IMG/VR virus record: IMGVR_UViG_3300032069_000017
Location: 1-51,251 of that record
DNA: 51,251 nt
Reading direction: 5' to 3' (one strand)
DNA from: a virus
Lineage: Duplodnaviria; Caudoviricetes
Numbering within the stretch: position 1 is the stretch's first letter; the number at the start of each line of letters is the position of its first letter. The notes beneath the pieces were generated by a model. The model searched no databases and was not told the DNA's origin. It saw nothing but the letters and a program-made list of their open reading frames with translations. A program made the position numbers and the translations under genes. Positions 9,265 to 51,251 of this stretch are shown piece after piece.

Positions 9265-10482
9265 ATGCCACAATTTAGTGATGGACAAAAAATATCGGAA
9301 GCACTTGTTTGGGACCGTTTAATACAGAGTGGCCCAGCAAGTTATGTCATTTGGAAAGATGGAACACAAACAAAAGCTGAGTGTTTGCTGAAAGGCGGAA
9401 CCGACTATACTACTGGAACAGATGCAACGGTTATGCAAGCGGCAATAGACGGTTTAACCACTGGAACCATACTTGTTAAAAAAGCCACTTATTCATTATC
9501 AGTAGGCTTAATCAATCTCGCTAAAGAAATAGAAATCGTCTGTGAACCGGGAACAGTTTTTCAACCAACAGCAGCAATAAACATGATTACGTTTGATAGG
9601 GTTACCCACGTGGTTGCGGGCATAAAAAATGCGACATTAGACTTAAACAACACTGCTTCAACTGGTTTACTTTTGCTGGATAGTTGGCACACGATTAATG
9701 ATGGTTTAAAAATAATCAACGTGGGAACCAATGGTGTTGGAGTAAAAATTTATTCAACAAACAACAGTTACCTTTGCCTATCCAATTATGTTCGCTGCAG
9801 ACAAATAAAAGCTTACAGTGCACAAATAGCGGGAAGCATTGGTGTCTTAATTGATTCAGCAGGCGGAATAGCAGCGGGAACAAACAACGTTGTGGATGTT
9901 GGGTATTTAGGAGCACCATCTGTCGAAACTGGCATTAAAAATGTTGTTGGTGGCTCATCTGTTTTTCATGGAATAGTTGAAGGTTGTAAGATTGGAGCAG
10001 ACATTTCTGGAACGGCAACTCTGTTTCTCCACGAAGAAGCCAACACAACATACGGAATAATCGTTAGGACAGGAGCAAAAGTTAAAGGAATCCTTCGCTA
10101 TGCTGAAAACATCACTACCGAAGGAACAGGCAAATACATACTCATCACTGACAACCGTATCTTTTTAGGTTCAGCATCTCCAGAAGACACACCTGACATC
10201 TTTTTTAACGTTGGGGGAAGTCACACAATGACTATGGTGGGTTTAGGTGGTGGAGCAGCAATCGATTTTAAAGATACTGCTAACAAAAAACGCGTGAGAC
10301 TTGACATAAACAGCAGTGCCATCAAAACTTACAAGACAGATGAAACTGAACTTGGCGGGCTAATTGCTGGTTCCGCAGAGAACCGTCCCGTCCTTAAATT
10401 CTGGGACGTAACTGCGAACGCTTTCAAATACGCTTACATTGACAACGGAGCGTGGGTAATATCAGCTACACCGCCGACTTAA
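9265..10482 (+). CDS. Tail spike/receptor-binding protein (pectate-lyase-like beta-helix), copy A
   Basis: DATVMQAAID…GTILVKKATY start typical of beta-helix tailspikes, followed by Gly/Asn/Ile-rich coils. Confidence 0.75.
   Translation: MPQFSDGQKISEALVWDRLIQSGPASYVIWKDGTQTKAECLLKGGTDYTTGTDATVMQAAIDGLTTGTILVKKATYSLSVGLINLAKEIEIVCEPGTVFQPTAAINMITFDRVTHVVAGIKNATLDLNNTASTGLLLLDSWHTINDGLKIINVGTNGVGVKIYSTNNSYLCLSNYVRCRQIKAYSAQIAGSIGVLIDSAGGIAAGTNNVVDVGYLGAPSVETGIKNVVGGSSVFHGIVEGCKIGADISGTATLFLHEEANTTYGIIVRTGAKVKGILRYAENITTEGTGKYILITDNRIFLGSASPEDTPDIFFNVGGSHTMTMVGLGGGAAIDFKDTANKKRVRLDINSSAIKTYKTDETELGGLIAGSAENRPVLKFWDVTANAFKYAYIDNGAWVISATPPT
9566..10237 (+). repeat. 672-bp identical core of the shared spike gene, copy A
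   Basis: Matches 50580-51251 (offset 41,014) wherever compared. It is bounded by mismatches at 9565/50579 (C/G) and 10238/128 (T/G). The antisense ORFs 9716..9919 and 50730..50933 are identical. Confidence 0.93.
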
Positions 10483-10501
10483 GTAAAGTAAGTGATATTC
10501 T

Positions 10502-11062
10502 ATGGATGTTGCTCTTGCTGTCTATAATTGCTTAGTTAATGGTTGGAATAAACCACAGATTATTGATATAGCTGATTTTTTATCAGATGATTATACTGAC
10601 CCAGACTTCTTTGTTAATGATGTCTATGAACAACCTGAAAGTGGTTTACCAACTGTAACATGGAGACTAGATGAATTTGACCCTAAAAGCCCTAGCATAC
10701 AAGTGTTAATAGAAAGTTTCCCTATACGTAGTGTGTGGGTTGCTAGAGGAATATACCGGGTAGAACATAAGGTTAGAATCACTATATACCAGAAGCTTGT
10801 CCATTATAATGCTGATAGAATATCAGAGTATAAAACAAACTGGTTTAAGGTTAAGACAGAGATTGATAGAATCTTAGCTATAAATAAGTTTAGTATAACC
10901 AATATTTCTAACCTTAACTTGACTGGTGGCTGGGATGATAAGAATACTATTGCTGTTGGTAGAGGAATAAAGACTACTAAAGAACCTATAGTATGGAAGA
11001 GTGAACAGATTATTACAACGGTATATTATACTAATAAGATATTAGAAGAGGAAGTATCTTAA
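10502..11062 (+). CDS. Putative tail terminator (unit L)
   Basis: Precedes the tube gene; VRITIY…KTEIDRIL pattern. Confidence 0.55.
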   Translation: MDVALAVYNCLVNGWNKPQIIDIADFLSDDYTDPDFFVNDVYEQPESGLPTVTWRLDEFDPKSPSIQVLIESFPIRSVWVARGIYRVEHKVRITIYQKLVHYNADRISEYKTNWFKVKTEIDRILAINKFSITNISNLNLTGGWDDKNTIAVGRGIKTTKEPIVWKSEQIITTVYYTNKILEEEVS

Positions 11063-11063
11063 T

Positions 11064-11519
11064 ATGTCTTATGGTAACGTTATTATAAGACCTAAAGATA
11101 TAGAAATAGGCAGTAATGCTAATGAGCATTATCTATGGTTTGGTATAGATTCTATTAATTGGACAGATGTTACTCCTTGGGAGCATATAGAAATACCAGC
11201 AGGTCCAATGGTTCACCAACATCTTCATAGTCCCCATATAAGAGGAGAGATTAGATGCTATGATTTTGATGCTTTGTATAAAGCCTTATTTAGTACTATT
11301 ATAAATGTTAGTAATAAGACAGCTGTTAATCCAGATACTATGGCTAAATATACTGTAGACTATTTTAAAGTTAATATAGTTAATGATAAGAATGAGACTA
11401 TAGAAGTTATAATAGATGGGTTTAAAGTAGAGACTGTAGGAGTAGAAAATATTAAGTTAGGTTCAGAAGCCCTTTGGATAGTAAAGTTTTCTGCTGATAG
11501 AATAGCTTACGGAGTGTAG
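11064..11519 (+). CDS. Putative tail tube protein (unit L)
   Basis: Homologous to 1431..1919; position in the tail module. Confidence 0.6.
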   Translation: MSYGNVIIRPKDIEIGSNANEHYLWFGIDSINWTDVTPWEHIEIPAGPMVHQHLHSPHIRGEIRCYDFDALYKALFSTIINVSNKTAVNPDTMAKYTVDYFKVNIVNDKNETIEVIIDGFKVETVGVENIKLGSEALWIVKFSADRIAYGV

Positions 11520-11523
11520 CCTA

Positions 11524-11970
11524 ATGCCAAATCCGTGGGCAGATTTAATTACTGAATATATTGCTGACTTAAGAGCTAGAGTATATGCATTAGAAGCTAA
11601 ACAACAAGAACTTGAAGCAAGCCTTATGGGTAGACCGGAAGGAGAGAAACTAACAGAAGAAGAAATGGAATCGGAACGTGTAAAGGCTGTTTCTACTATT
11701 AGTATGATTGGCATGGCTAGACGTTCAGTTTATGGCTATGCTATGCTTCTAGATAGTCTGGGACTACCTAAAGACCAGAGAGAAATGATTAGACAAGTAG
11801 AAGCTAGTATTACTGCTATGATGAGGCTTATGCAAGCAGTTAGAGCAACAGAACTTGCTATACAAGCATTTGAAGCTGGTATGGGTCCAATAGGATGGGT
11901 GTACTTAGCTATGTCTGGTGGTATGTATGCTGCTACTATTATGTATGGAAGTAAAACATTAGGGGGTTAA
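11524..11970 (+). CDS. Minimal tape-measure-like protein (148 aa)
   Basis: Helical, with LGLP and GPIGW motifs shared with 2287..2595. Confidence 0.55.
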   Translation: MPNPWADLITEYIADLRARVYALEAKQQELEASLMGRPEGEKLTEEEMESERVKAVSTISMIGMARRSVYGYAMLLDSLGLPKDQREMIRQVEASITAMMRLMQAVRATELAIQAFEAGMGPIGWVYLAMSGGMYAATIMYGSKTLGG

Positions 11971-11974
11971 AGCA

Positions 11975-12175
11975 ATAACTGATTACTATAGGACAATAAT
12001 AGATTATATAGGTGAATTAGATAATAGATTAAAAATAGCTAATTTTTATAAAATTTTTACTGAAATAATAGAATTAAAGGATAGAAAGTTTAAGCTATGG
12101 AACTGGTTTAGGCTTCATTTAAAATATAAGTACAAAGAGCATCCTGAAGAATCTACTGGTAAGAGTGGTGGTTAG
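11975..12175 (+). CDS. Short paralogue of the 12180 repeat protein, probable ATA start
   Basis: Read manually: (I)TDYYRTIIDYIGELDNRLKIANFYKIFTEIIELKD…YKYKEHPEESTGKSGG, matching the repeats and KEHP…KSG tail of 12180..12821. No ATG/GTG/TTG is in frame. Confidence 0.65.
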   Translation: MTDYYRTIIDYIGELDNRLKIANFYKIFTEIIELKDRKFKLWNWFRLHLKYKYKEHPEESTGKSGG

Positions 12176-12179
12176 TTAA

Positions 12180-12821
12180 ATGCCAGAAACAGTACCAGCA
12201 GACTTTGACTATAATGATTTTGAGCCAGCGGACTTTAAGACTGATGCACAGTTTGAAGAATCACTTATAGATAAAATTGGTAACTTGTATGTTTGGAATA
12301 GAATGGTTACTAGGTATAGACTATTCTTAGATAAGAATGGTTTAACAGATACAAGATTAAGAACTAGTACTCTTTATAGAGTATTTATAGATAAGGTTGG
12401 TAATTTAGATAGTAAAACCACTCTAAGAAGGATATATAGAAGTATAACTGATAGTATAGGCTTATTAGATGCTAGACAGAGAATAGCTAGTATGCATAGG
12501 AGTTTTATAGATAAGATAGGTGAATATGATGTTTTTAATACAGTACTAGGTACGGTTACTCATTTCTTTAGAACCATATATGAATTCTTAGGGTGCTTAG
12601 ATGCACGTAGTAGAATAAGTAGTTTACATAGATTATTTACTGAAGAAGTGGAGTTAAAAGATACTAAATTAAAAACCGTTACCCTTTATAGAATATTCAT
12701 AGAGAAACTTAGCAGTATTACTGTACTTAGCTTTATATATCGCCATTCAATATTATATTATATATACAAGTACTTGCATAAAGAACATCCTAAACAGAAG
12801 ATACAGAAGAGTGGTATTTAA
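12180..12821 (+). CDS. Tail-associated protein with about 20-aa tandem repeats
   Basis: Roughly eight repeats of the type YRxFxDKIGxLD. Confidence 0.65.
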   Translation: MPETVPADFDYNDFEPADFKTDAQFEESLIDKIGNLYVWNRMVTRYRLFLDKNGLTDTRLRTSTLYRVFIDKVGNLDSKTTLRRIYRSITDSIGLLDARQRIASMHRSFIDKIGEYDVFNTVLGTVTHFFRTIYEFLGCLDARSRISSLHRLFTEEVELKDTKLKTVTLYRIFIEKLSSITVLSFIYRHSILYYIYKYLHKEHPKQKIQKSGI

Positions 12822-15196
12822 TGGATAGTAGAATATTAAGACAAGTAAAGATAGGGGAAGACCCAGATATTACAGATGACAGTATAAGTACGTTAGTTAC
12901 TTTACCAGAGAATGGTATTAGTACTTGTATCATAACTGCTAATAATGATGCTGGTAAGAACTATCTAGCCCACTTTAAACTGCTTGATGAAGTAACTGTT
13001 AAATATGCTTATGAAGAAGATAATCCAGTATGGGATAATATAAACCCGGTATTTAGAGGCAATATTATAGAACTTACTCCTTCTATGACTAGAACTGGAG
13101 AAGTAGTTTCAGTTATAGCTATAAATATTGGTTACTGCCTTAAACAAATGAGAGTAGCTACTGAATACGGAACTCAAGCTATTATTACTGATATTAATCC
13201 TATACATGATGCATGGACTGATAGTTTAACACCTACTGATGGTGTATGGGATAAAGGGAGTGCAGACAATGTTCTTAGTCTAGATTCAGGTATTAAAGTT
13301 TATGGTCAGTATAGTATTAAGACTATAGCTGGAGCAGATGGTACTCCGTATCCATACTTTACATTAAATAGTGGTAAAGAAGTTAATGCTAATAATTATT
13401 CTTATTTAGACTTCTACTGTAGATTTACTGAAGCATCTAATGATTTAAGGGTTATCCTATCAGATATAAATAATAAACAAGCTTCTATTTGGGTATTTGG
13501 TGCTACTCCCCAGAATGGTGCTTGGTATGCTAAATCATTAGATATAACTTTAACAGGGAGAGCTAGTTGGACTGTTGATGCTGGATTTGACTGGACAAAG
13601 ATTAAGAAGATATGGTTTAATGCTTTTACTGCTAGTACTGGTGCATTATGGATTGATGTAGTTTACTTTGACACTATGCCGTTAATCCCAGAAACTTTAA
13701 GACAGATACTACTTAATTCTAATAATGGTTTAATAAATAGATATATAGAGAAGATACTTAATACTGAAATTAATTCTGGTTACAGTTTAGACACGAACTA
13801 TGTGTATAATGACTTAAGTACATATTCTTACTTAAACTTTCCTTACCAAGATGCTTTTATGTGTTTACAAGACCTTATAAGGTTAGGTTCTAGTTTACAT
13901 TATGTAGCTAGTCCAAGTAGTTGGAAAGGTCTACACTGGATAATAACTCAAGATGGTAAACTAGTAATTGCTCCCGTAGGAGACCATCATGTTGAAGGTG
14001 CAACTGGTAAATGGATAGATAGTATATGGGCTATTAGAGTATCTAATGAACCTTTAGTAGTTAGAGAGGATATGATTACACAGAACTTTAAGACTGAAAT
14101 ACCATTAGCTAATTACATATTAGTAGCTGGTAAGTTTATTTATCCAATAAATGAATATTGGACTGAAGGACATAGTGAATTATGGTCAAAGACCAATCCT
14201 AATAATTGGGTAAATGGTACTATAACAAATGATTACGTAAATAAGGTTGGTGGCAATTCTTCCCTTAAAGTAGATTCTGGTGGTGATGTTGGTACTACAG
14301 TAATAGGTATTATTCACGAGAATGAAGATATAGACATAGCAAAGACAAGTACTAAGAATAGCATACCTAAACTTCTAGTGTCTATTCGTAAGGAAGCTTT
14401 AGGCAATTTCTTAAAGATTAGACTATGTACCACTGACACTAATAACTACTTTGAACTGGATATAACTAATAAACTAAAAACTGATGATGAGTGGGCTATA
14501 TTAGAAATAGAACTTAGTGATTATGCAAAGACTGATATATGGACTAAAGTTGGAAACCCCGGTTGGAATCATATAAACAAAATATGGTTCTATATGCAGA
14601 CTCCAGCAATTGGTCATCTTATTATTTGGTTTGATGGTTTAGAAATTGCTAATAACTGTATTAGAGGGGCATACATATCTGACTGTGGACAACCCACCAT
14701 TGATACTTGTACTAAAGGATGTATTAAACATTATAACTGTAGATTCTTAACTATTAAGGATAGTCTAGCTAGTACAGATAATTTAGACCCAGCTAATGAT
14801 AGTAGCCCTTTAGCACAATTAGCGTTATATGAACTACTACGTAACCGTATAATAAGAACTACTGGACAGATAACTATACCATTAGACCCTAGCATAACGC
14901 CCGGTCAGTTAATACACATTCATGCTTGCTATGATGAAGCAAATAGTATGTATAGAATAGATAGGGACTTTAGAATTACAGAAGTACAACATAACTTTAT
15001 TATTAGTGGAACTGTAACCTTATTGAAACTAGTAGATGATTTACTTAATAGTATTCCTATAGATACCATGGACCCGTATAGTATAACTATGAGAGCTATT
15101 AATCCAGACTTCCAAACCAGAACCTATGCTAGCCTTAAAACTGGTGGAGACTTTATAACCTCACAGAAACCCATAAGCAAAGACTACACTAATTAG
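12821..15196 (+). CDS. Baseplate hub/tail-tip protein with two carbohydrate-binding-like inserts (unit L)
   Basis: Homologous to 2597..4381. The inserts end in DWTKIKKIWF and WNHINKIWF. Confidence 0.7.
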   Translation: MDSRILRQVKIGEDPDITDDSISTLVTLPENGISTCIITANNDAGKNYLAHFKLLDEVTVKYAYEEDNPVWDNINPVFRGNIIELTPSMTRTGEVVSVIAINIGYCLKQMRVATEYGTQAIITDINPIHDAWTDSLTPTDGVWDKGSADNVLSLDSGIKVYGQYSIKTIAGADGTPYPYFTLNSGKEVNANNYSYLDFYCRFTEASNDLRVILSDINNKQASIWVFGATPQNGAWYAKSLDITLTGRASWTVDAGFDWTKIKKIWFNAFTASTGALWIDVVYFDTMPLIPETLRQILLNSNNGLINRYIEKILNTEINSGYSLDTNYVYNDLSTYSYLNFPYQDAFMCLQDLIRLGSSLHYVASPSSWKGLHWIITQDGKLVIAPVGDHHVEGATGKWIDSIWAIRVSNEPLVVREDMITQNFKTEIPLANYILVAGKFIYPINEYWTEGHSELWSKTNPNNWVNGTITNDYVNKVGGNSSLKVDSGGDVGTTVIGIIHENEDIDIAKTSTKNSIPKLLVSIRKEALGNFLKIRLCTTDTNNYFELDITNKLKTDDEWAILEIELSDYAKTDIWTKVGNPGWNHINKIWFYMQTPAIGHLIIWFDGLEIANNCIRGAYISDCGQPTIDTCTKGCIKHYNCRFLTIKDSLASTDNLDPANDSSPLAQLALYELLRNRIIRTTGQITIPLDPSITPGQLIHIHACYDEANSMYRIDRDFRITEVQHNFIISGTVTLLKLVDDLLNSIPIDTMDPYSITMRAINPDFQTRTYASLKTGGDFITSQKPISKDYTN

Positions 15197-15243
15197 TAAG
15201 CTTTAAATAGTTTATTATACACTATTATTAGTAGGTAAATAAT

Positions 15244-15609
15244 ATGTATGAAGATATAATTAAAGGAATAGCATTAGGAGCATTCTATGGTGCGCAAGCA
15301 GCTCTGATTGGTTACTTAAAGTCTGATGAACTAGAACAAAGCTGGAGAGTGGTTCTTACTAAGAAGTTCTGGGAATCCTTTGAACCAACTAAAGCCATAA
15401 AGACTATTGTTGTTGGTGCGGCAATGGGCGGTTTTACACAAGGACAAATCTATGGTATAATACCAGCAGACCCAATAGTTAGTAACTTTGGATATGATAT
15501 TATAGTAATGGGTGTTGACCAGTTTGTTAAGTTCATTGTACGTAGAACACCGCTTGTACGATTATGGAACGCGCTTAAAGAGAAAGTCTTAAAGCTACCG
15601 GTACAGTAA
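15244..15609 (+). CDS. Membrane protein, possible holin
   Basis: Hydrophobic segments, last gene of the virion block, own TTTAAATA promoter at about 15202. Confidence 0.45.
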   Translation: MYEDIIKGIALGAFYGAQAALIGYLKSDELEQSWRVVLTKKFWESFEPTKAIKTIVVGAAMGGFTQGQIYGIIPADPIVSNFGYDIIVMGVDQFVKFIVRRTPLVRLWNALKEKVLKLPVQ

Positions 15610-16269
15610 AGGGTACCTTCTAGGGGTATGCTACTAATATTCTATCTATATCCCATTTTATTATACTATCTTATTTTTATTACTACTAATGAGTGTAACT
15701 GCAGGTGCCATTTTCAGCATTAACTTAGGATAAAATTAGAAAACCAACTAGCAGTACCAACCAGCGGTTTAACTTTGGGGGCACGACCAACCGCCAGTGA
15801 CAACTGATAGTACAATAGATAGTTCTGCTCTAATAAATTGTAGTTTAACTGGTAGGTATAACTGGTAGTTTAAAACGATGGTAAATGATACTGATAGTTA
15901 AACCGGTAATAGAACTACAATATTCTATAGTTAAACTTTGTATGGTCCTCACCGGTTGGTCCCTATGATATAATTATACTGCTGGTTTAACCGGTACTTA
16001 AGGCTAGGCTTATAAGCTGATTCTACCTATAGTTTAACTAGTATATTAGTATTCTATTACTGGTTAGTGGCACTGCCGAAGGAACTGGGGGAGGGACTGA
16101 GGGAGTGTCCTTGTATATGCTTTTGTATATAGATACTAGATTGTATAGGTAAGTCTATTACTTTAAATACTTTACCTATATAGGCGGTTTAACTTTTTAG
16201 TATATAAGGCTTTTAAAAGCTTAAATACTAGACCTACTATAGGCTAGGCTAGGTAAGAAGGTTAGAAGA
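15610..16269. other. Long non-coding region of unit L (candidate origin or packaging region and early promoter)
   Basis: No ORF. Repeated GTTTAAC/GTTAAAC words, GCGGTTTAACTTT at 15764 and 16184, and TATA-like TTTAAATA and CTTAAATA near its 3' end. Confidence 0.55.
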
Positions 16270-16599
16270 ATGGTAAGTAAACTTTACTTAGAAAAGCTTA
16301 AAGAAGAATTAGTAAGTAAGCTTAAGCTATCTAGTAAGAAGATAGTAGTAAGTTCTTCTAGTTCTAAGAAGGTTATAGCCTATTATTCTAAGCTTAATTC
16401 TACCTTAGGAAAAGCTAAGTATAAAGAACTAGAAGTTAAACTAACAAAAGAAGAACTAGAAGAATTAGAAGAATACTTTGATGAATACCTAGAAGGTTGT
16501 ACAGATTTTTGTAATAGTAAGTTTTATTATCTTAATAGTCTTTTAGGAATCTTAGAAACTTTATTAGATACTAGTTTTAATATAGAATTTACTAATTAA
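16270..16599 (+). CDS. Hypothetical early protein
   Basis: First ORF after the non-coding region, with an AGGT RBS. Confidence 0.55.
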   Translation: MVSKLYLEKLKEELVSKLKLSSKKIVVSSSSSKKVIAYYSKLNSTLGKAKYKELEVKLTKEELEELEEYFDEYLEGCTDFCNSKFYYLNSLLGILETLLDTSFNIEFTN

Positions 16600-16780
16600 A
16601 GAAGGTTAGAAAAATGAAAATAGGAGATTATAAAGATAGAATAGCTATAGAAACTAAATCTAGAATACTAAGATTATACTGTACTATGAAAGAAGAATAT
16701 AATCCTCATGATAGTATAACAGATATAGGAACTAGAAAACAGAGAAAAGGCTTTAAAAGAAATAGGAGAATTAAAGTAAA

Positions 16781-17212
16781 ATGAATAAACTAACTAAGCT
16801 AAGTAAAGTAGAACTTAGTAGAAAACCCTTAGAATGCTGTTCTATTTGTAAAAAATTCTTTACTAAAGATAAACTAGAAAAGTGGGGAGACTATTACTTC
16901 TGTGAATCCTGTATTAAACTAATAAAAATGTTCTATGGAAAACCAAAAGATAGAATAGATATAGTAATTCCAAGAATATCTTATAGTCCCTTTCGTAATA
17001 CCGGTTGGGTACCGGAAGGTATAAAACTTTATGGTTTTAAGGAAGAAGACTTTAACTATACTTTAGTTTGTATTAGCCATGAAACCCTCCATTATGTTAT
17101 TAATAAAATAGAAGGTTTAAGGGCTAGTTATAATTTTGATAGTCTAGCCCACAATAAGATTTATGGTACTCCTTTAGCTGATGGTATATTTCTAGAAGGT
17201 AAAGAAGAATGA
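16781..17212 (+). CDS. Zn-finger plus HExxH (zincin-like) protein
   Basis: CSIC…CESC and HETLH. Confidence 0.55.
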   Translation: MNKLTKLSKVELSRKPLECCSICKKFFTKDKLEKWGDYYFCESCIKLIKMFYGKPKDRIDIVIPRISYSPFRNTGWVPEGIKLYGFKEEDFNYTLVCISHETLHYVINKIEGLRASYNFDSLAHNKIYGTPLADGIFLEGKEE

Positions 17213-17524
17213 AAGTTAAAACAGCCTTAAGTATAGTAGGAATAAGCTTAACTATTCTGGGTTGGCTTATCTACTGGCTTAAACTAATGGGATGGTAAGA
17301 ATGATAAACTTAGCTAATAGTGAAACTTTAATAATAATCTTACTAATCTTAGCTAGTTTAGGAATAATGTTAATGGAATACTTAGAATATTTAGATAAGA
17401 AGGTGGAAACTAATGAAAGTTAAACTGAAGGATAGAACTATAGGTAGTCACAAACTGCCTAAAGACTTATATACTAAGCCGTTATCTTATAGTAATCGTA
17501 AAAGAAAAATGGAAGTAAAATAAA

Positions 17525-17758
17525 ATGAGAATAAATAGAAAAGATTTGGAAGTAGTAATACAAAGATTAAATAAAATGAGTAAACAGAAATATAGACTAG
17601 ATGGAGCTTATGGTGGCTGGCAATTAGTTTATGAAATTGAAGACACTACAGCTATTAACCAAGTAACCTATGGCTTTAAACCGGCTAGAGAACTATATGA
17701 TATAATCTATGCTATAATAAGATATATAGAAATAGAATCTAAAAAGAATGTGGAATAA
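17525..17758 (+). CDS. Hypothetical phage protein
   Basis: LDGAYGGWQLV motif; member of a run of small early ORFs. Confidence 0.55.
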   Translation: MRINRKDLEVVIQRLNKMSKQKYRLDGAYGGWQLVYEIEDTTAINQVTYGFKPARELYDIIYAIIRYIEIESKKNVE

Positions 17759-18571
17759 ATGAATAAAAATAAATGGTCTAAGGAACTAAAGGAAAAGGTA
17801 ATGAAGTACTATCTTAAAGGAAACTTAGAGGATTTAATAGAACTTATTAATTGGGCTAAGGAAGAACAACAAATAGAAGATTATGAAGAATGTGAATATT
17901 GTGGGGAGTCTGTAGAATGATAGTAAAAATAGGAAGATACTGTTTCGTAAATAAGGAAGCCTTAGAATCTTTACTAAAAACTGGATTAGTAAAGGAATAT
18001 GACTTTAGCCCAGAAGCTAGAGAAAAGCATGATGAAGAAGCTATATTTAATAAGGATAAAATAAAGATTAAAGTTACAGATAAGGAAATAAAGGAATACT
18101 GGAGTAAGAAACTTAGAGAAACTAAGGAACAGAAGCATATTGAAGTAGGTAAAGAAAAGGTAGCTAATCCTTGGATGGGAAATTAAATGGCTAAAGCTTA
18201 TAATCATAAATTAGTTTGTTCTAAGTGCGGTCATTTAGGATGTTTTCATTATTGGGCTGGTAAAGGTCATTGTAGTATTAAGGAATGTAAATGTGATGGT
18301 GGAAAATATAGTAAGAAAACTAAGCAAACTAACTTAGTAGAAGATTATAAGTTTCCAGATACTAAGAATAGGTTTAAACTTGGAGAAAAATAGGTATGGA
18401 TATAAAAGAAGAAGTTAAGAAAAGTTTAAAAGAGGAAAACTTAGGTTTCTGCTTAGGATACTTAGAGAATATACTTATAGATGGTTTAGTATGGAAGTAT
18501 GGATTCAGTGAAGAGGAGGCAAAAGAACTAATAGAAATAGTAATGCAGAAATATATTAAGGGAGAATAAAT

Positions 18572-18982
18572 ATGAATACAATAAGATATGAAGGTAAGAT
18601 GACAGATTGTTTTCCATCATGGGTTTGGGAAGTAGCTACTGATTACCTACAGAATCCATTTGACTATACTAAAATAATAGATTACCTAAAGAATAAACAT
18701 GGTAAGAAAAGACCTAAGATTATATGGACTACTATAGAAGAAATAACTACTGCACCGGCTATAAGTAAACCTAAGCTTCAGCTATTTCAGTTAGATACTG
18801 GTAAAAATAGTAATAATGGAAAAACTTACTATACTAAGCTACAGACTATATTCACTATAGAAAATACTAACTATCATATAGACCAAGAAGTACTAATATA
18901 CGTTAGTGAATTACTAAGTCAAGTACTAGAAAGAAAGGTTTATCTTTATGAAGATGATAATTTAGTAGTAGAGGTTGAATAA
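18572..18982 (+). CDS. Hypothetical protein
   Basis: GGGAG RBS; ORF in the early cluster. Confidence 0.55.
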   Translation: MNTIRYEGKMTDCFPSWVWEVATDYLQNPFDYTKIIDYLKNKHGKKRPKIIWTTIEEITTAPAISKPKLQLFQLDTGKNSNNGKTYYTKLQTIFTIENTNYHIDQEVLIYVSELLSQVLERKVYLYEDDNLVVEVE

Positions 18983-37025: not shown

Positions 37026-37064
37026 GTTTCCTATTTTTATAATAAACAGTTAGAGGTATATAAT

Positions 37065-37286: not shown

Positions 37287-37426
37287 CCATTCTTAGTTTA
37301 TTAGTTTAAATATAAAGAACTATAAACACTATTTATATATCTCTTTTAACATATTACTTATTAGATTAGTATGAAATCTACATCTGAACTGGGTGGAGTA
37401 AATTTAAAGTATAGGGAGATTAAATT

Positions 37427-40171: not shown

Positions 40172-40521
40172 TGAACAAAAAAGAAAGAAAGAAAGAGTAT
40201 GAACGGTTATACTATTTAAAGAATAAAAAAGAAATTGATATTTATAGAAAAGATTGGTTAAAGAATATTAAGAAACAGAGGAGAAACGAAATTATTAGAT
40301 TACTTGGTAATAAGTGTATTATATGTGGGTATAAAGGACTAGCACTTCAGATAGACCATATAAATGGTGGTGGTCGTAGAGAATTTCTTAAATGTAGTAA
40401 ACGACCAGCGAGATATTATAAGAAAATTCTGGAAAGTATAAAAAGAAATGAAGGTAAGTATCAACTTTTATGTGCTAATTGTAATTGGGAGAAGAGGTAT
40501 AAGAATAATGAATATAATTGA
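40171..40521 (+). CDS. HNH endonuclease, paralogue of the intron HNH
   Basis: LLGNKCIICGY…LQIDHINGGG…YQLLCANCNWEK. Confidence 0.85.
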   Translation: MNKKERKKEYERLYYLKNKKEIDIYRKDWLKNIKKQRRNEIIRLLGNKCIICGYKGLALQIDHINGGGRREFLKCSKRPARYYKKILESIKRNEGKYQLLCANCNWEKRYKNNEYN

Positions 40522-41785
40522 ATTTTTTAAATATCTAACAAAGTTAGAACCAACACCAGACCAATGTAAATTTCTTCTTGATTGTGTAGATATAGATATT
40601 CATAAATTGCTTATATCAGCAGGCCGTCAATCGGGAAAAACACTATGTTCTGCAATAGCTGTCTTGTGGTATGTGTTTGAATATGATAAGCCTATTAAGA
40701 TAATATTAATATCAGCCCAGCAGAATATTCTATACCTTCACATGCTAGATATATTTAGGAAGTGTGGTGATGCTAGGTTTAAGAATATTAAACAGGGTGG
40801 ACAGATATTAGAAGAAACACCTTGGAATATAGTACCATTAAAGGGATTTACTACACAAAGAGGAACTATAGTATATGTTAGAGGGTCTACGGATAAACAG
40901 ATTAGGGGAATACCAGCAGATATAGTAGTATTAGATGAATGCTGTGAAATAAAGAATGATATAATCCTTACTTCTATGGGTAATATTACCGGTCCAATAT
41001 CTAAGTTTATTGTTCTATCAACACCGCATGTAGATACTAGTCTATTTGTTAAGTGGGCGACAACGCCAGAGGATAAGTTTAAGATTCATTTATGGAACTC
41101 TGAAGGTTTACCTTGGCATTCTAAAGTAATAGATGATACTAAGAAGAAGGAATATAGTAGAGAGAAGTATGCAGTAGAAATGCTGGGTAGACCACCTACA
41201 AAAGCTGAAAGGGCATTCTTTCCTAGTAAGCATATTGAGAAGTGCGTATTACCAGTAGAACCTATAAGGGAAGGTGGTCCTCATAGTAGATTAGAAATAG
41301 GTATAGATTGGGGATTTGAAGCTCCAACATTCCTTATAGTTACAGAGAGGATAGGAACTACACAGAGAAAGATACTGTTTACTAAGAAGTGGACTGGTAA
41401 ACCTATAGAGACTATAGGACCAGAAATACTTAATATTATAGCAGACTTTAAGCCTTACCTAGTTAAAGCTGATAGTAAACCACCAGAATATAAACAATGG
41501 TTTGAGAACCATGCTAGACATGTAGTTATATTTATTGACTGCGCGTTAGGGCATAAGGAGCAAATGCTTGGTCAATTACAGAGAATGATAAGGGAACATA
41601 GACTAATAATACCGCAGACATTACCAAATGTTGTAGATATAATAATGGCATTAAGGAAGTACAGAAGGAAGATGATTAAAGGTGATGACCCGGTAGATGC
41701 TCTTTCTCTTAGTATTTATGAGCCAAGCAGTCCTCTAGAAGGGGGTTCATATGGGCGGGTTTATTTCCCAGAGAATAAAGAATAA
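40508..41785 (+). CDS. terL: Terminase large subunit
   Basis: AGRQSGKT Walker A, VVLDE Walker B, STP, nuclease GIDWG and DDPVDA. Likely start is ATG 40508. Confidence 0.92.
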   Translation: MNIIEFFKYLTKLEPTPDQCKFLLDCVDIDIHKLLISAGRQSGKTLCSAIAVLWYVFEYDKPIKIILISAQQNILYLHMLDIFRKCGDARFKNIKQGGQILEETPWNIVPLKGFTTQRGTIVYVRGSTDKQIRGIPADIVVLDECCEIKNDIILTSMGNITGPISKFIVLSTPHVDTSLFVKWATTPEDKFKIHLWNSEGLPWHSKVIDDTKKKEYSREKYAVEMLGRPPTKAERAFFPSKHIEKCVLPVEPIREGGPHSRLEIGIDWGFEAPTFLIVTERIGTTQRKILFTKKWTGKPIETIGPEILNIIADFKPYLVKADSKPPEYKQWFENHARHVVIFIDCALGHKEQMLGQLQRMIREHRLIIPQTLPNVVDIIMALRKYRRKMIKGDDPVDALSLSIYEPSSPLEGGSYGRVYFPENKE

Positions 41786-43209: not shown

Positions 43210-44844
43210 ATGGATAATAAAAAAGTATTATACTGTTCGTATGAATGGGCAAAGATACCTACAGATTTAAATAGGAAAAACTTAGTATTAGTTACTGTTA
43301 AGACGCCTAAGACTACTATACATCCAGAAGACCCTGAATATAATATTAGAATATTTAAACCAGAAGAACTTAGGGAAGCTGCAAGAAGCCTAGCTCAAAG
43401 ACCAGTGGGGCTTAACCATGGTCCTATAATAGTAGGCGCTTTCACTGTAGATGCTAATTGGAATGAGAAAGAACAAGCAGTAGAAGCATTGTTATATGTA
43501 CCAGACCCTTACATTGATAGAATAAGGTCTGGAGAAATCAATAAAGTTTCTGTAGAATTTACTTGGCGTGATGAGAAGAAGACTGATAAGGGAATAGAAT
43601 TTGAAGGCTTTGTATTTAATAGAGTAGACCTCTTAAGCGGTATGAATCCGGGTGATAGTAATACACAAGTTAAATTAGTAGAAGGTAAAAGAGGATTAAT
43701 GGAAGGAATGATACAGCAAGACAATATTCAAGCTAGTATAGATAAGCCTAATGAAAGTTTCTTTAAAGAATTAGAAGAAGCGGCGGATGCTTTTCTTAAG
43801 ACTTTGGGTGAACCATTTGCTGGGTATAAGGATTTTGCTGACTGTGTAGCTAAGAATAAAGATAAGAGTAACCCAGATGCGTATTGCGGTTACATTAAGC
43901 ATAAGGTAGAAGACCCTAAAAAAGAAAGTAAACCAGCAATATGTGATACGTTAATAGAGGCTAAATACGAACCACCTGAAGCTGGCACTTTACCAGCACA
44001 TGGTAAGGAAATATTAGCTTCAGCTTATGCATCATGTAGAGCAGATAAAGAACATTCTCCTTATGGTGATAAAGAACGTTGTTCTAAAATTGCTTGGGCT
44101 GCGGTTAAGAATGCAGGTTATGTTAAAGAAGATGATAAGTGGATTAAAAAGGAAGCTGAACCACAAATACCAGAACAACCAGTTAGTTCAATGGCTAGTG
44201 AACCAGCGCCTATGACACCTAGTCCATTACCGCAGCAAGTAGAACCAGTACAAGTTACTTCTGTAGGTGCTGTATCTGATAGTAAAGGACCACTTGGCAG
44301 AGAACCAGAGAAAGGTAATCCAGATAAGAACTTGGGTATGGAACCGGTTAAAGAAGAACAGTTAGGAGATAAAGATAAAGTAAAGATTGGTAAACAACCA
44401 GAAGTTGGTATAGGAACACCTTTAGTAGAATCTACTGCAGATAAGCCTAAAGAAGAACCTAAAAAGGAAGAACCGGTTAAGAAGGAAGAATCTAAGGTTG
44501 TAGATAAATCGGTAACACCACCACTACCACCTAGTATATCAACCTCCGCTAAAGAACCTAATAAGTTAGTTGAACCTAAACCAGCAGAACAGCCTAAACC
44601 AGAGGATAGGATTAAGGAATTAGAAGGTGTAGTTACTAAGTTACAAGAGAATGTTAAGAAACTAGAAGCTGATAAGAATAAGGTTATTAAGGAAGCTATA
44701 GAAAAGACTAAGAAGGAATTAATAGATAAGATAAAGGAAGCTTTACCGTCAGAGAATATTATAAGTAACTTTAACCGTGGTGGACGTATATTAGCTACAG
44801 ATATTAAAAAGGTTATTTATGAAGCTGAGGCGACTAAAGAGTGA
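43210..44844 (+). CDS. Prohead protease-ChaB-scaffold fusion
   Basis: PVGLNH…IRSGEINKVSVEF protease, ChaB-like LPAHGKEI…IAWAAVK…KW, Pro-rich linker and C-terminal coiled coil. Confidence 0.7.
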   Translation: MDNKKVLYCSYEWAKIPTDLNRKNLVLVTVKTPKTTIHPEDPEYNIRIFKPEELREAARSLAQRPVGLNHGPIIVGAFTVDANWNEKEQAVEALLYVPDPYIDRIRSGEINKVSVEFTWRDEKKTDKGIEFEGFVFNRVDLLSGMNPGDSNTQVKLVEGKRGLMEGMIQQDNIQASIDKPNESFFKELEEAADAFLKTLGEPFAGYKDFADCVAKNKDKSNPDAYCGYIKHKVEDPKKESKPAICDTLIEAKYEPPEAGTLPAHGKEILASAYASCRADKEHSPYGDKERCSKIAWAAVKNAGYVKEDDKWIKKEAEPQIPEQPVSSMASEPAPMTPSPLPQQVEPVQVTSVGAVSDSKGPLGREPEKGNPDKNLGMEPVKEEQLGDKDKVKIGKQPEVGIGTPLVESTADKPKEEPKKEEPVKKEESKVVDKSVTPPLPPSISTSAKEPNKLVEPKPAEQPKPEDRIKELEGVVTKLQENVKKLEADKNKVIKEAIEKTKKELIDKIKEALPSENIISNFNRGGRILATDIKKVIYEAEATKE

Positions 44845-45349: not shown

Positions 45350-46846
45350 ATGGTTAATTCACGTTGGCAAGCATTAAAGGAAGCAATACTTGGAGTTCCA
45401 AAAGCACCTGAAATAGTAAAACCTACTGATGTAGCTGTTTTAGGTGCGGTAGAACAAAGCTATGGTATCTATCAAGTTCCTAGCTTTAGGGAAATGGTTA
45501 CTTGCTTCTGGGATGACCCGCTACTTAAAGAAGCTGTTACTATGTTTGCTGAACAGGTTGTGGCTACAGGAGTATTCTATACGTCTAATCCTAAATATAA
45601 ACTAGTACTTAATGGTAAGACAGCTTTAGATATAATTAAAGAATGGGCTGATGATAATAATATAGATACTAAGCTATTAGAGATAGCTATAGAACTTAAG
45701 GCTTTTGGTAACAGTTTATGGAGACTAGACCCAGAACTTGGTTTTATTAAAATACCAATAGAAGCTATATGGCACGCTGTAAGGGTAGACTCAGAGACCC
45801 CATTACAAGAGAAGTATAATATACAGTTGGTTCCTATCTATGGTGGTAAGGTTATACCTTGGAGTGAGTTTATACACTTTAGAGTAGGAGTAACTGGTTA
45901 TCATGCTCCGTTTGGTCAAGGAGTAGTTTATAGCTTATTATCTAAGCCTATAGATAGTAAAGGTAATATTGCTCCTAGCATATACGATATTAGGCTTAGT
46001 ACAAGGAGCAGTCTTAATGAAGGCTTTAGGAAGTTCAGCTTTGGTAATGAACTATGGGTATTTGAAGGAATGAGCAATGAAGACTTTGAGACTAGTCAAA
46101 TAGGTGCAAAGATAGCTGGAATGTCCAGTACTGGAAATAGAATAGCTACCAATGCAAAGGGACAGATACACCTAGCAGTTCCAGAACGTACACAGTCTTA
46201 TGATGAATTTATTAAGCACATGAGGGATGAATTCTTTATGGCTTTAGCTGACCCTAGTCTTAAATTGGGGTTAGAAGAAGGGTTTACTAAGGCTACATCT
46301 GTTACTGCTAGTGAAGTTTATAAGTATAAAATAGCTACTATGAGAAGGACTATTAAGCAGCACTTTGAAGACTTATTTAAGCAGATACTAGATAAACTAG
46401 GATATGATGGTAGAGAAGCTAGGGTAGAAATGAACTTTGGACCAGAAGAGACACCAGAATATGCTGTAAAAGATATATTTGATGCTGTTAAGACTGGTAT
46501 TATACTTAAGAATGAAGCTAGGAAACTATTATCTAGATACCACAAGTGGGATATTGAAGGTGATATTAAAGGTGGAGAAGAACCGCTATTGGCTCCAGTA
46601 TCATTATTGCCTACAAGAACGCATCCATCACCAAGCGGGATTGTGGCAGAACCAGAAACACCAGCAGATATTAAAGCAATACAGAAAGGTACGGAACCAC
46701 AGCCTAAGATTGCTCAAGAAGGTATAAAGGATAACTTAGAAGAAATCCAAGAAAAGCGTAAAGAAGCGCTTATTGACCTTGAACTTAAAGAGAAAAGGAA
46801 GAAACTATTAGATAGGTTGTTAAAAGATGAAGATACTACAAAATAA
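45350..46846 (+). CDS. Portal protein
   Basis: DPLLKEAV, FGNSLW, EFIHFR…FGQG and NEARKLL motifs; size fits. Confidence 0.85.
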   Translation: MVNSRWQALKEAILGVPKAPEIVKPTDVAVLGAVEQSYGIYQVPSFREMVTCFWDDPLLKEAVTMFAEQVVATGVFYTSNPKYKLVLNGKTALDIIKEWADDNNIDTKLLEIAIELKAFGNSLWRLDPELGFIKIPIEAIWHAVRVDSETPLQEKYNIQLVPIYGGKVIPWSEFIHFRVGVTGYHAPFGQGVVYSLLSKPIDSKGNIAPSIYDIRLSTRSSLNEGFRKFSFGNELWVFEGMSNEDFETSQIGAKIAGMSSTGNRIATNAKGQIHLAVPERTQSYDEFIKHMRDEFFMALADPSLKLGLEEGFTKATSVTASEVYKYKIATMRRTIKQHFEDLFKQILDKLGYDGREARVEMNFGPEETPEYAVKDIFDAVKTGIILKNEARKLLSRYHKWDIEGDIKGGEEPLLAPVSLLPTRTHPSPSGIVAEPETPADIKAIQKGTEPQPKIAQEGIKDNLEEIQEKRKEALIDLELKEKRKKLLDRLLKDEDTTK

Positions 46847-47105: not shown

Positions 47106-47122
47106 AGGAGGTATAAAAAACT

Positions 47123-47687: not shown

Positions 47688-48797
47688 ATGGCACATACTT
47701 TCGATGCAAAGAACAGAGTAACTGGCACAGGCAATCCTTTGTTGGTTTCGCATACTTGTGGTTCTGGAGCAACGCTTTTAGTTCTTAGCCTAGTCGTTGC
47801 GGGGGCTACTGCAAGAACAGGCGGTGCTCCAACTTACAATGGAGTTGCCATGACGCAAGTTGAAACAACAAAGATAGCTACTGAAACAAACTGTGAAATG
47901 TGGTATCTGGTAAATCCAAGCATCGGCACATATAATGTTTCAATTCCGAACAGTGGTGGCTTAACCCTTTATGCAATCACTTCCAGTTATAAGGCGGCAA
48001 GTGGCTACACTTCGGCACTTGACGTGAGCACGTCAGGCACGGGAGTAAGTGCTGACCCTTCACTTACTGTTACAACTTCAGCAAGCGGGGAAGCACTGGT
48101 TGATGTTTTAGGTGACGGATACAATACACCACCAACTGAAAACGGATATGTTTTGCTTTACTCAACTGATGATGGATTATATAGTGATAATGCTCAATAT
48201 TGGTGTTCTGCCTATGCTGGGAGTATAACTTTCGACTGGACTGTTGCGTCAGACGACTGGTGCATGATTCTTGCAGCTTTCAAGGAAGTAGTCGGTATTA
48301 CTTCAAAAAGTTTCGGTGATATTGGTGGAGGCTCTGATGCTTTCATAAATCCTTACCGTGCAATGGGCTTCAGCGAGGTTGGCTTAGGCAGCGAAAGTTT
48401 CGGCACACCATTCAAAGCAATGCCCTTCAGTGATGCTGGTTATGGAACAGATGCTTTTTATGCTTTAAAGGGCGGTATGGGTGGACATGGTAAAAAACGT
48501 AAAGTAAGCGGTCTGCTTTCTATTAATATTCCTATTAGAGGATTCTTTATAAAACCTTTTACGGAGAATTACTTAGTTAGTAGAAGTTTAAAGAAGTTTC
48601 TAGTAGTTAAAAATTCTGTACAAGGAATACTAATAAATAGTATAAAGGAATCTTTACAAGTAACAGGTAGTTCTGAATGGAAACTTAGAGAATCTCTGCT
48701 TATTACCGGAAGTCCATCATATAAACTAAATAAACCTATAATGCTTATAGGTAAGAGAGGATATAAGTTATTATTAGAGATGCTAGAGGAAGAATAA
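47688..48797 (+). CDS. Putative fibre/decoration protein, mosaic
   Basis: Thr/Gly/Ser-rich beta domain, about 19-aa FSDxGxGxD repeats, then an AT-rich C-terminal part. Confidence 0.55.
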   Translation: MAHTFDAKNRVTGTGNPLLVSHTCGSGATLLVLSLVVAGATARTGGAPTYNGVAMTQVETTKIATETNCEMWYLVNPSIGTYNVSIPNSGGLTLYAITSSYKAASGYTSALDVSTSGTGVSADPSLTVTTSASGEALVDVLGDGYNTPPTENGYVLLYSTDDGLYSDNAQYWCSAYAGSITFDWTVASDDWCMILAAFKEVVGITSKSFGDIGGGSDAFINPYRAMGFSEVGLGSESFGTPFKAMPFSDAGYGTDAFYALKGGMGGHGKKRKVSGLLSINIPIRGFFIKPFTENYLVSRSLKKFLVVKNSVQGILINSIKESLQVTGSSEWKLRESLLITGSPSYKLNKPIMLIGKRGYKLLLEMLEEE

Positions 48798-48798
48798 A

Positions 48799-49413: not shown

Positions 49414-49621
49414 AGAAGAAGTATATGAGGATTGTCCAGTAGAAATATACGACTTAGCTACAACTAAGTGGGAGAAGAGTGTAGCATTAGGATTCTTAGA
49501 TGTACATAAGAAACTTAGTGATTTAGAGAAAGATATACAATGGCTTCAGTGGATGGTTAAAGGAATCTTTACGTGTACTATGATAGCAGTGGTTGCAGAC
49601 TTAATACTAAAGTTTATCTAG
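49397..49621 (+). CDS. Coiled-coil plus C-terminal TM protein (XhlA-like)
   Basis: LSDLEKDIQWLQW followed by a TM helix; likely start is ATG 49397. Confidence 0.45.
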   Translation: MNSKHKEEVYEDCPVEIYDLATTKWEKSVALGFLDVHKKLSDLEKDIQWLQWMVKGIFTCTMIAVVADLILKFI

Positions 49622-49656
49622 TTTCATAGTCATATATATGATAGGAGTAAATAAGT

Positions 49657-50208
49657 ATGAAAGAAAGGTTTAAGTTGCTTGATGAGATAAGAGTAGTACA
49701 TAAAGATGGGAACGGCAAAGTGCTTAGCGATAGGATTGTTAATGCTGGTCTCTGGAATAGACTGTTATGTAAACTGGGTTTAAAACATAATAGTATGACT
49801 AATATTGGTTTTGCTCAGACTGCTGCATGGATTCTACATGATATTGATGCTGACCACGTTACTTACGCTAACTGTGATTGGCTTGGTATTGGAACTGGAA
49901 CTGTTGCTGCTAGCCCAACTGATATTGGATTAGGAACTCAAGTAAGTAGGTTAGCTGGTGTTGGTACAAGGGTAACTACAACAGTAACAAATGATACTAG
50001 TCAATTGGTTGTAACCTTTAGTAAAGCAAATGATGCTGGTTTAGTTGGTACAATGGCTATTACTGAAGTTGGAATGTTCTGGGCTACTGGTACAGGAACT
50101 GGTGTAATGTTGCTTAGACAAGTATATACACCGGCTGATAACTGCAACTGGGATGCTGGTGATACCTTAGCCGTAACCGTTAAGGTTCAAGTAAAACAGG
50201 GCGCATAA
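49657..50208 (+). CDS. Tail-fibre anchor-like virion protein
   Basis: HNSMTNIG…LGIGTG…PTDIGL…ITEVGMF. Confidence 0.6.
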   Translation: MKERFKLLDEIRVVHKDGNGKVLSDRIVNAGLWNRLLCKLGLKHNSMTNIGFAQTAAWILHDIDADHVTYANCDWLGIGTGTVAASPTDIGLGTQVSRLAGVGTRVTTTVTNDTSQLVVTFSKANDAGLVGTMAITEVGMFWATGTGTGVMLLRQVYTPADNCNWDAGDTLAVTVKVQVKQGA

Positions 50209-50263
50209 ACTTCTCCCTTCATTATATTTTTAGAAGGAAATCTTAGTAAAAAGGTAGATAAAT

Positions 50264-51251
50264 ATGGTTGATGAAATAAGAACTATTCCACCTAAATTAA
50301 CAAAGACCGAATGGAATGCTTTACTAGAACATAGTTTAGAAAAGGGTGCTAGTTATATTATTTATAAAGATGGGTCTGGTAATACTCGGGCTTTAAACTG
50401 TTCTACCGGTAAAATAGATTCTATTAATACTGATAGTAAAACAGTAATTCAATATGCAATAGACGCTTTAACAAACGGAACAATATTGGTTAAAAAAGCC
50501 ACTTATTCATTATCAGTAGGCTTACCCGTTCTCGCTAAAGAAATAGAAATCGTCTGTGAACCGGGAACAGTTTTTCAAGCAACAGCAGCAATAAACATGA
50601 TTACGTTTGATAGGGTTACCCACGTGGTTGCGGGCATAAAAAATGCGACATTAGACTTAAACAACACTGCTTCAACTGGTTTACTTTTGCTGGATAGTTG
50701 GCACACGATTAATGATGGTTTAAAAATAATCAACGTGGGAACCAATGGTGTTGGAGTAAAAATTTATTCAACAAACAACAGTTACCTTTGCCTATCCAAT
50801 TATGTTCGCTGCAGACAAATAAAAGCTTACAGTGCACAAATAGCGGGAAGCATTGGTGTCTTAATTGATTCAGCAGGCGGAATAGCAGCGGGAACAAACA
50901 ACGTTGTGGATGTTGGGTATTTAGGAGCACCATCTGTCGAAACTGGCATTAAAAATGTTGTTGGTGGCTCATCTGTTTTTCATGGAATAGTTGAAGGTTG
51001 TAAGATTGGAGCAGACATTTCTGGAACGGCAACTCTGTTTCTCCACGAAGAAGCCAACACAACATACGGAATAATCGTTAGGACAGGAGCAAAAGTTAAA
51101 GGAATCCTTCGCTATGCTGAAAACATCACTACCGAAGGAACAGGCAAATACATACTCATCACTGACAACCGTATCTTTTTAGGTTCAGCATCTCCAGAAG
51201 ACACACCTGACATCTTTTTTAACGTTGGGGGAAGTCACACAATGACTATGG
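50264..51251 (+). CDS. Tail spike/receptor-binding protein copy B (5' part; 410 aa with 128-372)
   Basis: ATG 50264, MVDEIRTIPPKL…IQYAIDALTNGTILVKKATY, then the shared core. Confidence 0.85.
   Translation, partial: MVDEIRTIPPKLTKTEWNALLEHSLEKGASYIIYKDGSGNTRALNCSTGKIDSINTDSKTVIQYAIDALTNGTILVKKATYSLSVGLPVLAKEIEIVCEPGTVFQATAAINMITFDRVTHVVAGIKNATLDLNNTASTGLLLLDSWHTINDGLKIINVGTNGVGVKIYSTNNSYLCLSNYVRCRQIKAYSAQIAGSIGVLIDSAGGIAAGTNNVVDVGYLGAPSVETGIKNVVGGSSVFHGIVEGCKIGADISGTATLFLHEEANTTYGIIVRTGAKVKGILRYAENITTEGTGKYILITDNRIFLGSASPEDTPDIFFNVGGSHTMTM
50580..51251 (+). repeat. 672-bp identical core of the shared spike gene, copy B
   Basis: Matches 9566-10237. Confidence 0.93.
51125..51251. repeat. Terminal direct repeat (circularity overlap), copy 2
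   Basis: Identical to 1-127. Confidence 0.95.

Follow-up and report, generated by a model that had tools for sequence, protein, structure and literature searches.

A viral record classed as complete is probably an assembly walk through two elements that share a stretch of a tail-spike gene

False complete circular viral contigs arise from repeats and concatemers, and completeness is called from a terminal overlap of k-mer length (CheckV-style direct terminal repeat, DTR); the closed path of a de Bruijn assembler with k=127 leaves a terminal overlap of 127 nt. In tailed phages (P22, Det7 and CBA120-type), the tail spike joins a conserved, particle-specific N-terminal anchor to an exchangeable beta-helix body, which leaves a patch of near-identity in unrelated genomes. 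This work concerns the IMG/VR record IMGVR_UViG_3300032069_000017 (Duplodnaviria; Caudoviricetes), a DNA of 51,251 bases classed there as DTR and 100% complete, the whole of which is called the window below. The record is probably an assembler walk through two mostly separate DNA elements, here named L and S, that share one stretch of a tail-spike gene. It would differ from the false circular contigs mentioned above in that two distinct units are joined via a shared internal repeat, not one genome in a concatemer, and duplicate-genome checks would not flag it. The difference from known tail-spike exchange is that one partner would be a full virus and the other a head-less element of 10 kb, probably of archaea.

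Two archaeal systems come closest. In an Asgard archaeon enrichment, a 19.6-kb circle, NMV2, was later resolved into a 15.7-kb core virus and a 3.8-kb high-coverage circle, NMV2S, whose concatemers of up to about four units approach helper length (10.64898/2026.08.12.739948). The likeness is that one circle is split into a virus and a deeper small circle: here S has four to five times the depth of L, and four S units come near the length of L (4 x 10,110 = 40,440 bp vs 41,014 bp, which is arithmetic and not evidence). According to the available part of that report, however, the genes of NMV2S are for a helicase-primase, a Cas4-like nuclease and an Arc-like protein, with a virion module lacking, whereas in S a tail module is present and a replication gene was not recognised; the same part mentions no identical gene shared by the NMV2 pair, unlike S and L. 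The plasmid-derived archaeal satellites (pSSVx and the SRCEs of spindle-shaped haloarchaeal viruses) are small circles that have one or two virion genes in common with a putative helper and are often far deeper than it, at up to 155-fold its depth (10.1101/2025.02.15.638363). As far as the available part of this source goes, S resembles them in being small, deeper than its possible helper and a sharer of virion genes, but their viruses are spindle-shaped and their own genes include a plasmid Rep or primase, whereas S is of the head-tailed kind, with a whole multi-gene tail module and no Rep found. A satellite with a complete tail module was not found in a literature search that was not exhaustive.

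The window is divided as follows, where left and right denote the sequence of each unit before and after the repeat (the core), and depths refer to X1, the first of the sequencing runs treated below.

1–127, plus strand: terminal 127-mer, classed as the "DTR"; equal to the last 127 nt of the core; three copies
128–9565, no strand assigned: unit S, with one core copy a 10,110-bp loop; GC about 0.40; X1 depth 173–194
9566–10237, plus strand: core copy 1, spike residues about 101–324, between S-left and L-right; GC 0.409, GC at third codon positions (GC3) 0.326
10238–50579, plus strand: unit L, with one core copy a 41,014-bp loop; predicted head-tailed virus; GC about 0.33; X1 depth 45.5 and 36.8 over its first 9.8 kb
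50580–51251, plus strand: core copy 2, after L-left and up to the contig end, with S-right following at base 128

Direct sequence comparison showed 672 of 672 bases identical between 9566–10237 and 50580–51251, as the first-pass annotation of this DNA had reported; it had also placed the contig end exactly at the last identical base, and the bases bordering the core do differ on both sides (9565 C vs 50579 G; 10238 T vs 128 G). The homology is nevertheless wider than the 672-bp identity given there. To the left, 9420–9565 matches 50434–50579 at 123 of 146 positions (92 of the last 100 nt), and to the right, 10238–10482 matches 128–372 at 199 of 245 (95 of the first 100 nt); beyond these flanks identity is at chance (48/155 upstream, 60/218 downstream).

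The terminal 127-mer occurs exactly three times in the record, at 1, 10111 and 51125, the stretches 1–127, 10111–10237 and 51125–51251 being identical and equal to the last 127 nt of the core. Because it is also found internally at 10111, the "direct terminal repeat" is the tail of the internal repeat. A record of the DTR class is expected to have an end repeat unique to the two ends of one molecule, together with uniform depth; here an internal copy lies inside the 672-bp repeat, and depth over bases 1–20000 is 172.9–193.7 in S and 45.5 and 36.8 in L in run X1.

With repeat offsets of 10,110 (S) and 41,014 (L), the closed circle would measure 51,124 bp. In graph terms, the core is an edge R, entered from S-left and L-left and exited to S-right and L-right, with each of these four edges used once. 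One 51,124-bp circle and two circles (S of 10,110 bp and L of 41,014 bp) need the very same adjacencies. A de Bruijn path that crosses one edge twice makes both core copies identical by construction, and rare differences between S and L may have been collapsed.

In the explanation that we prefer, the 51,251-bp record would be a walk through a figure-of-eight assembly graph joining two entities: L, a 41,014-bp head-tailed virus of archaeal type, and S, a 10,110-bp element with a tail or adsorption module that would be much more abundant than L. The common graph edge would be 672 bp of a beta-helix tail-spike gene, and the terminal repeat the last 127-nt k-mer of that edge. The shared stretch would stem from a recent exchange of the spike body between an S-family element and L, each keeping its own N-terminal anchor. 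L would then close on itself (L-L), and S would exist as a closed circle or a concatemer.

Sequencing depth carries much of the argument. Four sediment-metagenome runs (X1–X4) from four studies were found with the query 4800–14799, and their Logan contigs were mapped onto positions 1–20000. X1 carries 0.96 of the sampled query words and is perhaps the source sample or a sibling of it. All six exact S contigs of X1 among the matches listed have depths of 172.9–193.7, and both exact L contigs among them have 45.5 and 36.8, which gives an S:L depth ratio of 4–5:1:

329–1191, S contig: depth 193.7, 0 other letters
1868–2626, S contig: depth 191.7, 0 other letters
3394–4348, S contig: depth 192.9, 0 other letters
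5621–6719, S contig: depth 172.9, 0 other letters
7403–8225, S contig: depth 180.6, 0 other letters
9006–9495, S contig: depth 189.0, 0 other letters
10311–16046, L contig: depth 45.5, 0 other letters
16017–20000, L contig: depth 36.8, 0 other letters

An X1 contig of depth 184.2 exits the core with S-right letters at five of five diagnostic sites (10238, 10263, 10287, 10289 and 10293), and no X1 contig with L-right letters at those sites (10238–10293) is among the matches listed. In terms of flow, about 189 enter the core from S-left, whereas L-right takes up about 45.5; the remainder, at least about 143 of the 189 copies arriving from S-left (76%), has to pass into S-right, and because of this surplus of inflow over outflow the S-S junction must be the main form of S. 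The difference in GC (0.40 vs 0.33) may bias depth somewhat, but in our judgement it would not yield a four- to five-fold gap. Run X2 has the S-S order in one record (record 9, 2,512 nt), in which 9079–9585 is followed by about 869 nt of diverged spike and then by 329–1316. The two X3 contigs at this place, 9265–9872 and 9920–10358, the latter with L-attached letters, are uninformative on topology. Stretches of the window lacking cover in X2–X4 carried no weight in the argument.

The S-S arrangement was also found in an independent assembly. L005, a metagenome contig of 12,904 nt and the sole confirmed match among 58 pattern matches, has S-left, spike, S-right, the rest of the S cassette and a 79-aa (amino acid) gene in this order, without any L sequence. 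Its S-left genes are close to those of the window (156 aa, 95.5%; 103 aa, 95%; 50 aa, 91%; 94% of nucleotides over 8184–9245), as are S-right (92% of nucleotides over 229–1942; 285 aa, 97%; 162 aa, 94%) and the 79-aa gene (95%). The first 330 nt of its spike gene are 91% identical to S-left vs 77.5% to L-left, and the spike body has diverged (52% of amino acids overall).

Of the three readings offered by the first-pass annotation, depth and the S-S junctions thus favour an assembler walk through two units, while a real cointegrate formed by homologous recombination and a single virus with an excisable second tail cassette are without positive evidence. The pattern that it had named as speaking against independent replicons, S-L and L-S junctions alone at uniform depth, is not what was found: in X1, S lies at 173–194 and L at 37–46.

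Even so, we consider it unlikely, though not negligible, that L normally exists as a 51.1-kb cointegrate arisen by homologous recombination in the core, or as a virus in which a second cassette is resident, and that the extra depth of S comes from free or excised S. The record as assembled is the cointegrate form, and the 672-bp identity, together with the RadA-like recombinase and XPF-like nuclease of L, makes recombination between S and L plausible; S-like and L-like sequences both occur in four of four runs, though these runs were selected by a query spanning both units. In the Asgard case, a single circle was later split, and the available part of the report has its authors proposing that the small circle integrates into the virus (10.64898/2026.08.12.739948). 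Against this stand the depth ratio, which places most S outside any cointegrate molecule, the S-S arrangement kept by S-family relatives, and the fact that two circles fit the same adjacencies. Such a cointegrate would also be unusual, being 25% longer than L and holding two divergent tail modules (26–27%) and a compositionally foreign 10 kb.

Several points weigh against two mostly separate elements. The depths are Logan per-contig k-mer means, a poor measure of copy number, and cover only positions 1–20000, with L-left and 31 kb of L outside; X1, as the possible source sample, is not independent of the record. The four runs consist of short contigs, none of which crosses the core and extends into unique sequence on each side. 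The L-L junction was never observed, and all L copies (about 41–45x) could in principle carry S. Since no close relative of L with the native order L-left, spike, L-right was found, the L-L arrangement is one that we infer and have not seen. The S graph is not simple, X1 having loose ends inside S at 3604, 4375, 4537, 4699, 4971 and 5476. Finally, one would expect a free replicon to carry a replication gene, and none was recognised in S.

One molecule made of L and a tandem array of about four to five S copies, amplified through the repeat, would give both the S-S junctions and the 4–5:1 depth. We regard it as extremely unlikely: the molecule would measure about 85–90 kb, twice L, nothing else supports it, and L005 exists without L sequence.

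Composition and gene content set the two units apart. GC is 0.40 in S vs 0.33 in L; tetranucleotide distances are 0.22 within S and 0.16–0.36 within L vs 0.45–0.66 between them; and GC3 is 0.32–0.37 in S genes and 0.19–0.29 in L genes, with 0.326 in the core and 0.18 in the L anchor. Only three S-L protein pairs were detected, namely the spike, 102 vs 148 aa (26%) and 594/625 vs 791 aa (27%). Judged by these measures, S and L appear to be different lineages.

The shared gene occurs in two forms:

9265–10482, plus strand: spike gene A, 405 aa; S-type N-terminal anchor, core and a 3' flank joined to the L cassette
50264–51251 and on to 372 across the closure, plus strand: spike gene B, 410 aa; L-type diverged anchor, core and a 3' flank joined to the S cassette
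128–372, plus strand: 3' end of spike B (S-right flank), 199/245 vs 10238–10482

The two proteins are 87% identical, with an indel-free alignment after about residue 50, and all four combinations of flanks around the core remain in frame. The gene is predicted to encode a tail spike with a right-handed parallel beta-helix body. The AlphaFold2 model of spike A has a mean predicted local distance difference test (pLDDT) of 74.9, exceeding 90 over residues of about 30–160, and consists of all-strand coils. Foldseek gave 25 matches in the PDB at E<=0.001 with phage tailspikes on top (7chu_A at 1.2e-6, Det7, CBA120 TSP2 and P22), the TM-scores being low (0.17–0.39); Pfam has no family in the spike A protein.

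The N-terminal anchor is conserved over about the first 75 residues. In alignment A2 (nine homologs and spike A), 28 invariant columns fall in spike A residues 1–58 and the downstream domains are unrelated; in the metagenome proteins P0006–P0016, the anchor is joined to varied C-terminal domains, some of them PF13229 or PF05048. The L copy has a diverged anchor with the L-like GC3 of 0.18 and becomes S-family-like at about residue 57, remaining so until 34 nt short of the stop codon, a patch of about 1 kb by composition. The simplest history is that L swapped its spike body for one from an S-family element and retained its own anchor; to judge from composition, the transfer would most likely have run from the S family to L. 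We favour the view that the identical core is biologically real and reflects a recent exchange of the receptor-binding body.

The first-pass annotation had expected each crossover to swap the spike termini. N- and C-terminal parts would indeed be exchanged, but the parts that differ are only an anchor of about 57 residues and a C-terminal part with 12 differing residues. It had further suggested that a satellite uses the shared gene as its attachment site in place of an integrase. This does not fit well: S is without a recognisable integrase and the window without an integrase remnant, yet the close relative L005 has a tyrosine integrase, which stands with unknown minus-strand genes in place of the S methyltransferase block.

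Polymorphisms in the 3' flank were considered as a test of topology and dropped; each flank stays with its own cassette under either topology, so that they date the exchange only. At the informative sites, L005 has mostly L-attached flank letters at 10351–10438 and the S-attached flank from 10449 on.

The main genes of S are:

383–4381, plus strand: S virion cassette of 285, 64, 162, 118, 102 and 594 aa; homologs in L004, L005 and L008–L010
5820–6311, minus strand: small DNA methyltransferase-like gene, a weak Pfam match below the cut-off, in the minus-strand block 5551–7221
8324–9264, plus strand: S-left genes of 156, 103 and 50 aa, directly upstream of spike gene A, 91–95.5% identical to L005

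S thus bears a second virion cassette, as the first-pass annotation had proposed, distantly related to that of L. The 118-aa protein matches phrog_5 (tail completion/Neck1), the sole match of 10 S proteins in PHROGs, and the 102-aa protein has a C-terminal membrane-like segment. The Pfam scan of 10 S proteins gave one weak methyltransferase match, and the NCBIfam scan of seven gave one sub-threshold match and none above the cut-off. No capsid, portal, terminase, integrase or Rep match was found for S (10 proteins in Pfam, 10 in PHROGs and seven in NCBIfam), absence from libraries of hidden Markov models being weak evidence for proteins as divergent as these. S also has small regulator-like genes. 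Its 156-aa protein falls only into unnamed viral clusters of the ESM Atlas, one of which has HTH_23 on 44% of its members, a lead. The AlphaFold2 model of the 285-aa protein is poor (pLDDT 41.3), and the 244-aa protein has no detectable relationship to the 306-aa protein at the equivalent position of L005.

More distant relatives of the S module (L004, L008, L009 and L010) carry it downstream of head genes, with single proteins at 55–86% amino acid identity; because of this position, the S-type module would be a genuine virion module. Among the genes of L004 are those for a head protease and an HK97/encapsulin-like capsid protein, while L005 has no head genes beside its module. S and L005 appear as the head-less members among the carriers.

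These relatives bear on whether the S loop is itself mis-joined, S-right and S-left coming from a larger abundant virus (e.g., an L004-like one of about 27 kb) or from a chromosomal island. Of the loose ends of X1 inside S, that at 4375 (= L004 11786) runs on as L004 sequence, sharing the end of the 594-aa gene, and summed depth is in excess at 4670–6003; the head-bearing L004, L008 and L009 have the S-type module, L004 and L008 coming from DTR records of 27.7 and 26.9 kb; and no replication gene is recognisable in S. We nevertheless judge a mis-joined loop very unlikely. The six exact S contigs among the matches listed stand at one depth level (173–194), and L005 (12.9 kb), which has no head genes next to the module, independently backs the path from the cassette via 4538–4637, 4840–5246 and the 79-aa gene to 5246, as well as that from 8184–9245 into the spike. 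The X1 contig 7403–8225 bridges 8184, where the homology with L005 begins.

An L004-like head-tailed virus, a third relative in the same run X1, could equally be a helper candidate for S. It is conceivable, though doubtful, that S and L005 form a family of 10–13-kb elements of archaeal-type tailed viruses, with a complete tail or adsorption module and without head or packaging genes, and that S is a satellite or defective mini-virus which borrows capsids from L or an L004-like virus and supplies its own tail. S, which has the receptor-binding spike body in common with L, might then be packaged as about a 4-mer, given the near match of four S units to L in length and its four- to five-fold depth, and S-L cointegrates could arise transiently via the identical 672 bp.

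The following genes of L were recognised:

10502–15196, plus strand: L virion cassette of 186, 151, 148, 213 and 791 aa
28118–29242, plus strand: RadA-like recombinase (Rad51/RadA, 5.9e-33); best NCBIfam model archaeal RadA, below the cut-off
29516–30184, plus strand: ERCC4/XPF-like nuclease (ERCC4, 1.2e-18)
40448–41785, plus strand: large terminase (TerL; Terminase_6N, 8.5e-10)
43210–44844, plus strand: ChaB-domain protein
45350–46846, plus strand: portal-like protein (phrog_9232, 1.9e-6)

The RadA and XPF proteins that the first-pass annotation had assigned to this unit are thus present as RadA-like and XPF/ERCC4-like proteins. L further encodes a family B DNA polymerase (DNA_pol_B, 8.2e-40), thymidylate synthase, a C5 methylase, a PD-(D/E)XK nuclease and HNH nucleases. 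Of its cassette proteins, only those of 148 and 791 aa are distant homologs (26–27%) of S proteins. Head, packaging and replication genes were recognised in L alone and not in S, and from its gene content L looks like a complete, self-sufficient head-tailed virus of archaeal type. Upstream of the terminase, in the region 36156–38608, a trypsin-like peptidase (36156–37025) precedes a 393-aa protein that matches the HK97 capsid weakly (5e-4, below the cut-off). The 369-aa protein (47688–48797) was considered as the capsid protein and dropped, having no family match. Among the replication genes lie two HNH endonuclease-like genes, 21263–21823 and 27597–28118, the second directly upstream of the RadA-like gene.

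In the viral contig collection, no close relatives were found for the spike, the 244-aa and 156-aa proteins or the 186-aa protein of L, and for the 369-aa protein of L only a partial, non-syntenic match (L006). TerL, the DNA of unit S and the 594-aa protein were without a match in the phage collection, as was 4382–9264 in the plasmid collection. Alignments A2 (spike) and A3 (285-aa protein), searched against genome contigs, led to no confirmed locus and hence to no host. L007, a 10.6-kb IMG/VR fragment, carries a 47% homolog of the 165-aa phrog_23653 protein of L together with an S-type spike anchor (62–65%), at 3565–3954 and 9977–10213, another instance of mosaicism between L-like and S-like elements. 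In L004 (6724–8784), the homologous counterpart of the 285-aa protein of S is divided over two open reading frames (ORFs) of 123 and 210 aa, which enclose two additional ORFs of 215 and 129 aa.

The intergenic region of S at 4600–5600 contains about 1.1 kb nearly without a long ORF, with three short palindromes at 4600–4683. Summed depth is in excess there, at 360–422 in X1 and at 99–448 in X2 vs about 6–16 elsewhere in S. The loose ends carry the same sequences in different runs (X1 and X3 before 4699, X1 and X4 behind 4971); therefore, a stretch of about 270 nt is common to several elements in different contexts, a candidate for an origin, an attachment site or a small mobile segment. Because no tRNA and no Rfam family were found anywhere in the window, the deep, widely shared stretch at about 4700–5600 is not explained by a known RNA gene. 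At 4641–4830, contigs of X3 and X4 omit 188 nt and have 28 other letters instead, and L005 is without 4638–4839; this is an indel particular to the S element of the window. Further along S, a 162-aa ORF (6733–7221, minus strand) has a run of eight asparagines from an AT-rich simple repeat (about 7094–7163), which the contig mapping passed over, and a Cys/His-rich C-terminus. In the divergent promoter region 7222–7366, a palindromic word of 12 nt occurs twice without any change (7294–7305 and 7335–7346).

A record classed as DTR-complete is probably two entities, and terminal overlaps of k-mer length that are also found internally should not count as closure. If there are two entities, the calls of gene content, genome size, host and taxonomy for this record are all wrong. 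The identical spike core would mark a very recent exchange of receptor-binding specificity between unrelated mobile elements of the sediment, and because the spike body was exchanged, a shared host of S and L is implied. If it is true that S is head-less with its own tail module, it would be a new kind of satellite-like parasite of archaeal tailed viruses.

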